Sequence record: MN850590.1
DNA from: Escherichia phage moha
Direction: 5' to 3' (one strand)
Length of the DNA: 64,000 bases
The position numbers were made by a program, and so were the translations under genes. The notes beneath the pieces were generated by a model. That model did not search any database. It was not told where the DNA came from and was given only the letters and a program-made list of their open reading frames with translations. Within the stretch, counting starts at the first letter, position 1. Each line of letters starts with the position of its first letter. Positions 1,560-2,245 of this stretch are shown in pieces.

Positions 1560-1790
1560 ATGTCTACTGAAACTATCGAAAAACTGCAGTCTGAAATCGT
1601 TACTCTGAAATCTCGCATTCTTGATACTCAAGACCAAGCAGCTGCCATTCAGCAAGAATCTCAGCAACTTGGTAGCGCTCTTGCTAAAATCGCTAATCTG
1701 GTTGGTATCACTGGTGAATCAGTTAAGATTGATGACCTGGTAGAAGCAGTACGTGAACTTGTTAAAGCTGAAACCACAGAAGAAGAATAA
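1560..1790 (+). CDS. 57A: gp57A tail-fiber assembly chaperone
   Basis: 76 aa; [17 protein letters not shown]...GITGE matches T4 gp57A. Confidence 0.9.
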
Positions 1791-2245
1791 TGAAATTTGA
1801 GGACTTTTCACAAGGCCTCTACGTCGCAGCTAAATTTTCGGAATTAACACTTGATGCGCTGGAAGACCTCCAGCGCAAATTAAGAATTCCTAATCCAGTA
1901 CCACGTGAAAAGCTTCATTCAACAATTTGTTATTCACGTGTAAACATACCATATACTACATCTAGTGGTAGTTATTCTGTTGCCGAATCAGGACACTTTG
2001 AGGTATGGAAAACTGACGACGGCGCTGTACTGGTTTTAGTTCTTGATTCTGAATATCTTAGATGTCGTCATCAGTACGCACGAGCTTTAGGTGCTACTCA
2101 TGATTTCGACGACTACACTCCACATATAACGTTATCATATAACGTTGGCCAACTATCATTCAGTGGTGATGTAGCTATTCCGGTTATTCTCGACCGTGAA
2201 TACAAAGAACCCTTAAAACTAGATTGGGCCGAAGATCTGAAATAA
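1790..2245 (+). CDS. 57B: gp57B (reported in T4 as anti-CBASS nuclease Acb1)
   Basis: 151 aa, ATGA overlap with 57A; T4 synteny. Confidence 0.8.

Follow-up and report, generated by a model that had tools for sequence, protein, structure and literature searches.

The gene in the 57B position of Escherichia phage moha very probably encodes Acb1. This small 2H phosphoesterase with a single domain would, by homology, cleave the cyclic nucleotides of the CBASS defense systems. The gene is an ordinary, intact ortholog of T4 gene 57B, and identical proteins are public; the value of the assignment is solely in annotation. In close relatives of moha, records of this family are labeled 'hypothetical protein' or, via PHROG 755 and RefSeq, 'RNA ligase'; the proper name of the gene that should replace these labels is acb1 (anti-CBASS phosphodiesterase).

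Gene neighborhood and family membership of acb1

We analyzed a 64-kb window of the moha genome. The genes in the vicinity of acb1 are as follows:

177-767, upstream of acb1: gene 3 (gp3, tail completion)
821-1555, plus strand: gene 1 (dNMP kinase; Pfam DNMK, E=1.2e-96)
1560-1790, plus strand: 57A (tail-fiber chaperone), an ORF of 76 codons (Pfam GP57, E=5.9e-23)
1790-2245, plus strand: acb1 (gene 57B), an ATG-to-TAA ORF of 151 amino acids plus the stop codon
2323-2610, plus strand: ipI (internal protein I; Pfam IPI_T4, E=1.3e-50), 88% identical to T4 IPI

The gene order 3-1-57A-57B-ipI is common to the window, T4, and mobillu, the Mosigvirus with the closest genome in the database (99.0% DNA identity over 1.3 kb). 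Given this T4-type order, both the coordinates 1790-2245 and the term '57B position' are exact, to the base, with 57A upstream and ipI downstream; the gene has been retained, as the original prediction had it. The internal-protein gene that was said to adjoin it is ipI, which lies directly downstream of acb1. In T4, the product of ipI is an inhibitor of the GmrS/GmrD restriction enzyme. The order 3-1-57A-57B is also found in phages phiR1-RT, Acj9, 50AhydR13PP, Va3, and KP15, and is kept in Tequatrovirus, Tegunavirus, Acajnonavirus, Tulanevirus, Schizotequatrovirus, and Slopekvirus.

The acb1 product aligns with all 144 positions of the Pfam Acb1 profile (PF23474), scoring 197.3 bits where the family threshold is 27 (E=1.3e-58), and, over the full length, shows 85% amino-acid identity to T4 57B/Acb1 (NP_049750.1), which bears out the expectation that it is Acb1-like. 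The product also matches PHROG 755 (E=2.4e-65), and a phmmer search aligned residues 9-148 with Acb1 of Erwinia phage FBB1 (PDB 7T26/7T27) at 63% identity (E=1.1e-58). A tblastn search with acb1 detected matches in 1469 phage records, nearly all of these (1461) with coverage of at least 80%; in 137 phage records, the protein is at least 99% identical, and the identity is 100% in KP869104 and KT184310. The perfect matches include E. coli O157 typing phage 6 as well as phage ATK48. On the strength of the Pfam, PHROG, and tblastn matches, acb1 is a real gene, and a chance ORF is ruled out.

The description of T4 57B as an anti-CBASS nuclease needs a small qualification. The T4 protein is an anti-CBASS enzyme encoded beside ipI (PMC9117128), specifically, a metal-independent 2H phosphodiesterase that acts on cyclic di- and trinucleotides rather than a general nuclease.

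Active site, pocket, and lid

In T4 Acb1, the active site consists of the tetrad H44, T46, H113, and T115 (Hobbs et al. 2022, PMC9117128). The bases of the ligand are stacked by Y12, W74, F107, and W147, E141 touches the adenine N6, and a lid formed by residues 145-152 shuts over the ligand (PMC9117128). The residue identities and numbers given in that study agree with the T4 sequence in our alignment. In moha, the two catalytic motifs and the lid map as follows:

1916-1924, plus strand: first HxT motif, H43-S44-T45 (T4 H44/T46), codons cat-tca-aca
2123-2131, plus strand: second HxT motif, H112-I113-T114 (T4 H113/T115), codons cat-ata-acg
2219-2242, plus strand: C-terminal lid, residues 144-151 (LDWAEDLK), including the stacking W146; T4 residues 145-152 (LDWADDLK)

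Alignment with the catalytic residues of T4 Acb1 had been set beforehand as the check on the assignment, and no loss was seen: all four residues of the tetrad are kept, with H43, T45, H112, and T114 of moha corresponding to H44, T46, H113, and T115 of T4. The stacking aromatics are identical as well (Y11, W73, F106, and W146 for T4 Y12, W74, F107, and W147), and so is E140, the counterpart of E141 that contacts the adenine N6. Altogether, moha Acb1 differs from the T4 protein by 22 substitutions, which spare all the named catalytic and base-contact residues; one of them, the conservative D149E, is in the lid. This lid is required for Acb1 activity (bioRxiv 10.1101/2025.08.21.671373), and the moha ORF ends at the same C terminus as T4 Acb1.

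An alignment of nine homologs, with identity down to 27%, shows no variation in the two HxT motifs, the Tyr, or the Glu; it includes the proteins of T4, FBB1, Yersinia phage phiR1-RT, Acinetobacter phage Acj9, Aeromonas phage 50AhydR13PP, Vibrio phage Va3, Klebsiella phage KP15, and Vibrio phage phiKT1024. The AlphaFold2 single-sequence model of moha Acb1 is of poor quality (mean pLDDT 39.6, pTM 0.29); the 2H phosphoesterase fold is assigned by homology to 7T26, at 63% identity.

Predicted mechanism and anti-CBASS role

The enzymatic activity, substrate range, and anti-CBASS phenotype of moha Acb1 are predicted here from its similarity to the characterized members of the family. The protein would bind second messengers that are cyclic di- or trinucleotides with one or more adenosines. 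The ligand would be held in a U-shaped pocket, with the bases stacked by Y11, W73, F106, and W146 and the adenine N6 read by E140, and would then be covered by the C-terminal lid. H43, T45, H112, and T114 would carry out metal-independent acid-base cleavage 3' of adenosine, with a 2',3'-cyclic phosphate as the intermediate. Once the signal is linearized, the CBASS effectors would stay off, such that abortive infection would be averted.

Several published experiments address this activity in T4 and other phages. The H44A/H113A mutant of Acb1 is inactive, all nine further homologs assayed are active, and cleavage of cyclic nucleotides is lost in the lysate of the T4 delta-acb1 mutant (PMC9117128). 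In transposon sequencing, T4 57B is dispensable on K-12 and depleted under CBASS (bioRxiv 10.1101/2025.11.20.689424). In T4, protection from CBASS by this gene has thus been demonstrated in vivo.

Purifying selection and uneven conservation relative to T4

We estimated dN/dS between moha and T4 for eight neighboring genes using the Nei-Gojobori method. The lowest ratio among the eight is that of 57B (dN=0.126, dS=2.10, dN/dS=0.06). Ratios for the genes around it are:

ipI: dN/dS 0.07
gp3: dN/dS 0.13
gp1 (dNMP kinase): dN/dS 0.20
57A: dN/dS 0.45

Thus, judging by a dN/dS of 0.06 relative to T4, at saturated dS, acb1 is under strong purifying selection, tighter than that on the adjacent dNMP kinase gene and on gp3. 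With synonymous sites at saturation, the identity of the protein to T4 (85%) reflects constraint rather than a recent exchange with a T4-like phage. Recent recombination with T4, considered as the source of the high identity of 57B and ipI, was accordingly rejected for 57B (dS of about 2.1).

Across positions 821-3517, amino-acid identity to T4 is uneven: it is high for 57B (85%), ipI (88%), and trna.4 (84%), and lower for gp3, gp1, and 57A (58-64%) and for trna.3 (45%). By these sequence comparisons, the anti-defense genes in this region are more constrained than the adjoining core genes.

A second anti-CBASS gene and predicted exposure to Panoptes

The window encompasses one more gene of relevance to CBASS:

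16482-16745, plus strand: Acb2/Vs.4 homolog, 87 amino acids (Pfam Acb2_Tad1_hairpin, E=4.2e-18), 65.5% identical to T4 Vs.4

With this gene, moha carries both anti-CBASS genes known in T4. The T4 acb1 and acb2 genes are reported to be middle/late expressed. Jointly, acb1 and the Acb2 homolog predict that moha would be resistant to many CBASS systems. The same pair predicts that the phage would be exposed to Panoptes guards, which sense the depletion of cyclic nucleotides, as indicated by work on T4-like phages. Specifically, type II Panoptes restricts T-even phages that encode Acb1, and these escape via mutation of acb1 (PMC13577387). Overexpression of T4 Acb1 triggers type I Panoptes, and deletion of acb1 from T4 leaves the type I Panoptes defense unchanged (PMC12657218; bioRxiv 10.1101/2025.08.21.671373). 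In light of these findings, carriage of acb1 together with acb2 represents a known trade-off. Such predictions are useful in the selection of phages where the defense repertoire of the host is known.

Alternative interpretations

Almost all T4-like phages keep 57B at a fixed position, and, in moha, the gene is under tighter selection than the dNMP kinase gene and gp3. Both observations would be explained if Acb1 also had a housekeeping-type function in addition to CBASS evasion or if its substrate range were specific to Mosigvirus; we consider this very unlikely.

Another proposal is that moha 57B is a LigT-like 2H enzyme acting on RNA ends (a 2',3'-cyclic phosphodiesterase or 2'-5' RNA ligase involved, for example, in tRNA repair), with cleavage of cyclic nucleotides being secondary. 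LigT and Acb1 have the 2H fold in common, 'RNA ligase' is the name given to the family in PHROG 755 and RefSeq, and acb1 lies about 2 kb from the cluster of tRNA and stable RNA genes. In the same vein, 57B is nearly universal in Straboviridae at one fixed position, and its dN/dS of 0.06, compared to 0.20 for the dNMP kinase, is atypical of an accessory counter-defense gene. Nevertheless, we find an RNA-end enzyme very unlikely. The residues that form the pocket for cyclic di- and trinucleotides, namely, the four aromatics, E140, and the lid, are all kept; T4 57B is non-essential in the absence of CBASS and important in its presence (bioRxiv 10.1101/2025.11.20.689424); and the cyclic-nucleotide cleavage activity is gone from the T4 delta-acb1 lysate (PMC9117128). 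Furthermore, in the Pfam search at E up to 0.01, Acb1 (PF23474) alone was reported, with no LigT or 2'-5' RNA ligase family, and the 'RNA ligase' identity was rejected on this ground. A search of NCBIfam for Acb1, Acb2, and IPI yielded no matches, which carries little weight because this library is centered on bacteria.

If moha 57B is an Acb1, as we conclude, its substrate range could still be shifted relative to that of T4 Acb1, for example, such that the Panoptes decoy 2'3'-c-di-AMP is left intact, as in the case of 2H PDE-9. Restriction of Acb1-carrying phages by type II Panoptes (PMC13577387) implies that selection for a changed specificity exists; related 2H phosphodiesterases vary in the cleavage of 2'3'-c-di-AMP, with specificity set by the core rather than the lid (bioRxiv 10.1101/2025.08.21.671373); and the moha protein carries 22 substitutions relative to T4 Acb1. 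However, these substitutions are mainly conservative and are located outside the named pocket residues, every known contact residue is the same as in T4, and PDE-9 is a distant relative (E=0.007 to 9Q2G), in contrast to the 85% identity between the moha and T4 proteins, so that a shift of this kind appears highly improbable. Finally, the possibility that moha acb1 is a decaying or inactive copy, similar to the nonsense-mutated acb1 of phage Bas43, is negligible and was rejected: acb1 alleles that have lost function under Panoptes pressure do occur, both in nature and in the laboratory (PMC13577387), but the moha ORF is full-length, free of frameshifts and premature stops, and retains all catalytic and binding residues, which excludes an inactive allele, and, moreover, the dN/dS is 0.06 and the protein recurs at no less than 99% identity in 137 phage records.

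Putative expression signals around acb1

The TAA stop codon of 57A overlaps the ATG start codon of acb1 by one base (TAATG), and 57A itself is separated from gene 1 by 4 nt. Judging by the short gap and the overlap, gene 1, 57A, and acb1 probably share a transcript, and the translation of acb1 is probably coupled to that of 57A. Two putative regulatory elements flank the 57A-acb1 pair:

1198-1205, plus strand: match to the T4 late-promoter consensus, TATAAATA, within gene 1; 57A begins about 360 nt downstream of it
2260-2294, plus strand: acb1-ipI intergenic element, a sigma-70-like promoter match overlapping a 12-bp hairpin

The TATAAATA motif is also present at the homologous site in T4 gene 1, within TATAAATAATAT, in which 12 of the 12 positions are conserved, and the flanks and codons around it diverge. 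We infer that 57A-acb1 may be transcribed from a late promoter at 1198-1205.

A spacer of 77 nt separates acb1 from ipI. A promoter scan of this spacer identified TTTACA-17-TACTAT with an upstream TG (extended -10), and the hexamers are kept in T4, which has both GTTTACATA and TACTAT. The 12-bp hairpin (2268-2294) has a predicted energy of -16.8 kcal/mol (z=-3.4). A scan for terminators 3' of acb1 found no canonical intrinsic terminator and, lacking a U-tract, the hairpin is not called as one. Probably, the element at 2260-2294 is where the ipI transcription unit begins, a stem at the 3' end of the acb1 mRNA, or both. Inspection of the T4 acb1-ipI spacer by eye reveals a 10-bp inverted repeat, its register shifted relative to the moha hairpin.

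Stable RNAs, tRNAs, and other loci in the window

Downstream of ipI, the tRNA gene region (4117-4271, plus strand) contains two tRNA genes only, Met (CAT) and Arg (TCT), compared to eight tRNAs and the segB homing endonuclease in the corresponding region of T4. The unannotated gap of about 385 nt located 3' of tRNA-Arg harbors homologs of two T4 small stable RNAs, which jointly span 4631-4895 on the plus strand:

4631-4750, plus strand: rnaD (species 2) homolog, 86.8% identical to T4
4757-4895, plus strand: rnaC (species 1) homolog, 98.6% identical to T4 over 139 nt

The rnaC homolog is much more conserved than the flanking protein-coding genes (55-82% DNA identity to T4). An Rfam search of window positions 1-20000 at the gathering threshold detected only the two tRNAs; rnaC and rnaD have no Rfam family and are without annotation in mobillu.

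Four plus-strand ORFs (3522-4037, 4290-4634, 5019-5483, and 5607-6110; 114-171 amino acids) gave no Pfam match. They are located downstream of ipI, around the tRNA genes, in a variable region that adjoins known anti-defense genes, and are annotated as 'hypothetical' in mobillu. The homolog of T4 Tk.4 (18362-18823, plus strand) is 84% identical to the T4 protein and contains a Macro domain (Pfam, E=1.8e-6); it is possibly an ADP-ribose-processing enzyme. With an E-value limit of 1e-3, tblastn detected no homolog of T4 ipII in the 64-kb window; the search did detect homologs of e, nudE, denV, regB, and tk.4, which are nearby genes in T4.

Comparison with known systems

The closest characterized counterpart of moha Acb1 is T4 Acb1, which occupies the same slot between 57A and ipI and has the same HxT/HxT tetrad, stacking aromatics, and adenine-reading Glu, and a lid with seven of the eight residues in common. 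The differences between the two genes are slight: moha Acb1 starts with MKF, whereas the T4 protein starts with MMEF and has one additional N-terminal residue, and the overlap of the 57A stop codon with the acb1 start codon is TAATG in moha and ATGA in T4. The Mosigvirus proteins (O157 typing phage 6, ATK48, and mobillu) are identical or nearly identical to the moha protein, and their records read 'hypothetical protein' or 'RNA ligase'.

At a greater distance, FBB1 Acb1, with structures available for the apo form (7T26) and the complex with 3'3'-cGAMP (7T27), shares with moha the tetrad, the Y, the E, and the C-terminal W. Unlike T4 and moha, which have W73 and F106 (moha numbering), it has F and Y at these positions, and it carries a one-residue insertion after position 78. 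2H PDE-9 (PDB 9Q2G) also degrades CBASS messengers and has the 2H fold and HxT motifs seen in moha Acb1, but the sequence similarity between the two is marginal (E=0.007); this enzyme has an N-terminal lid and cleaves 2'3'-c-di-AMP poorly (bioRxiv 10.1101/2025.08.21.671373). Lastly, the Acb2/Vs.4 sponge shares its goal with Acb1, namely, removal of the CBASS signal, but is unrelated to it in both fold and mechanism: Acb2 sequesters the signal without cleaving it.
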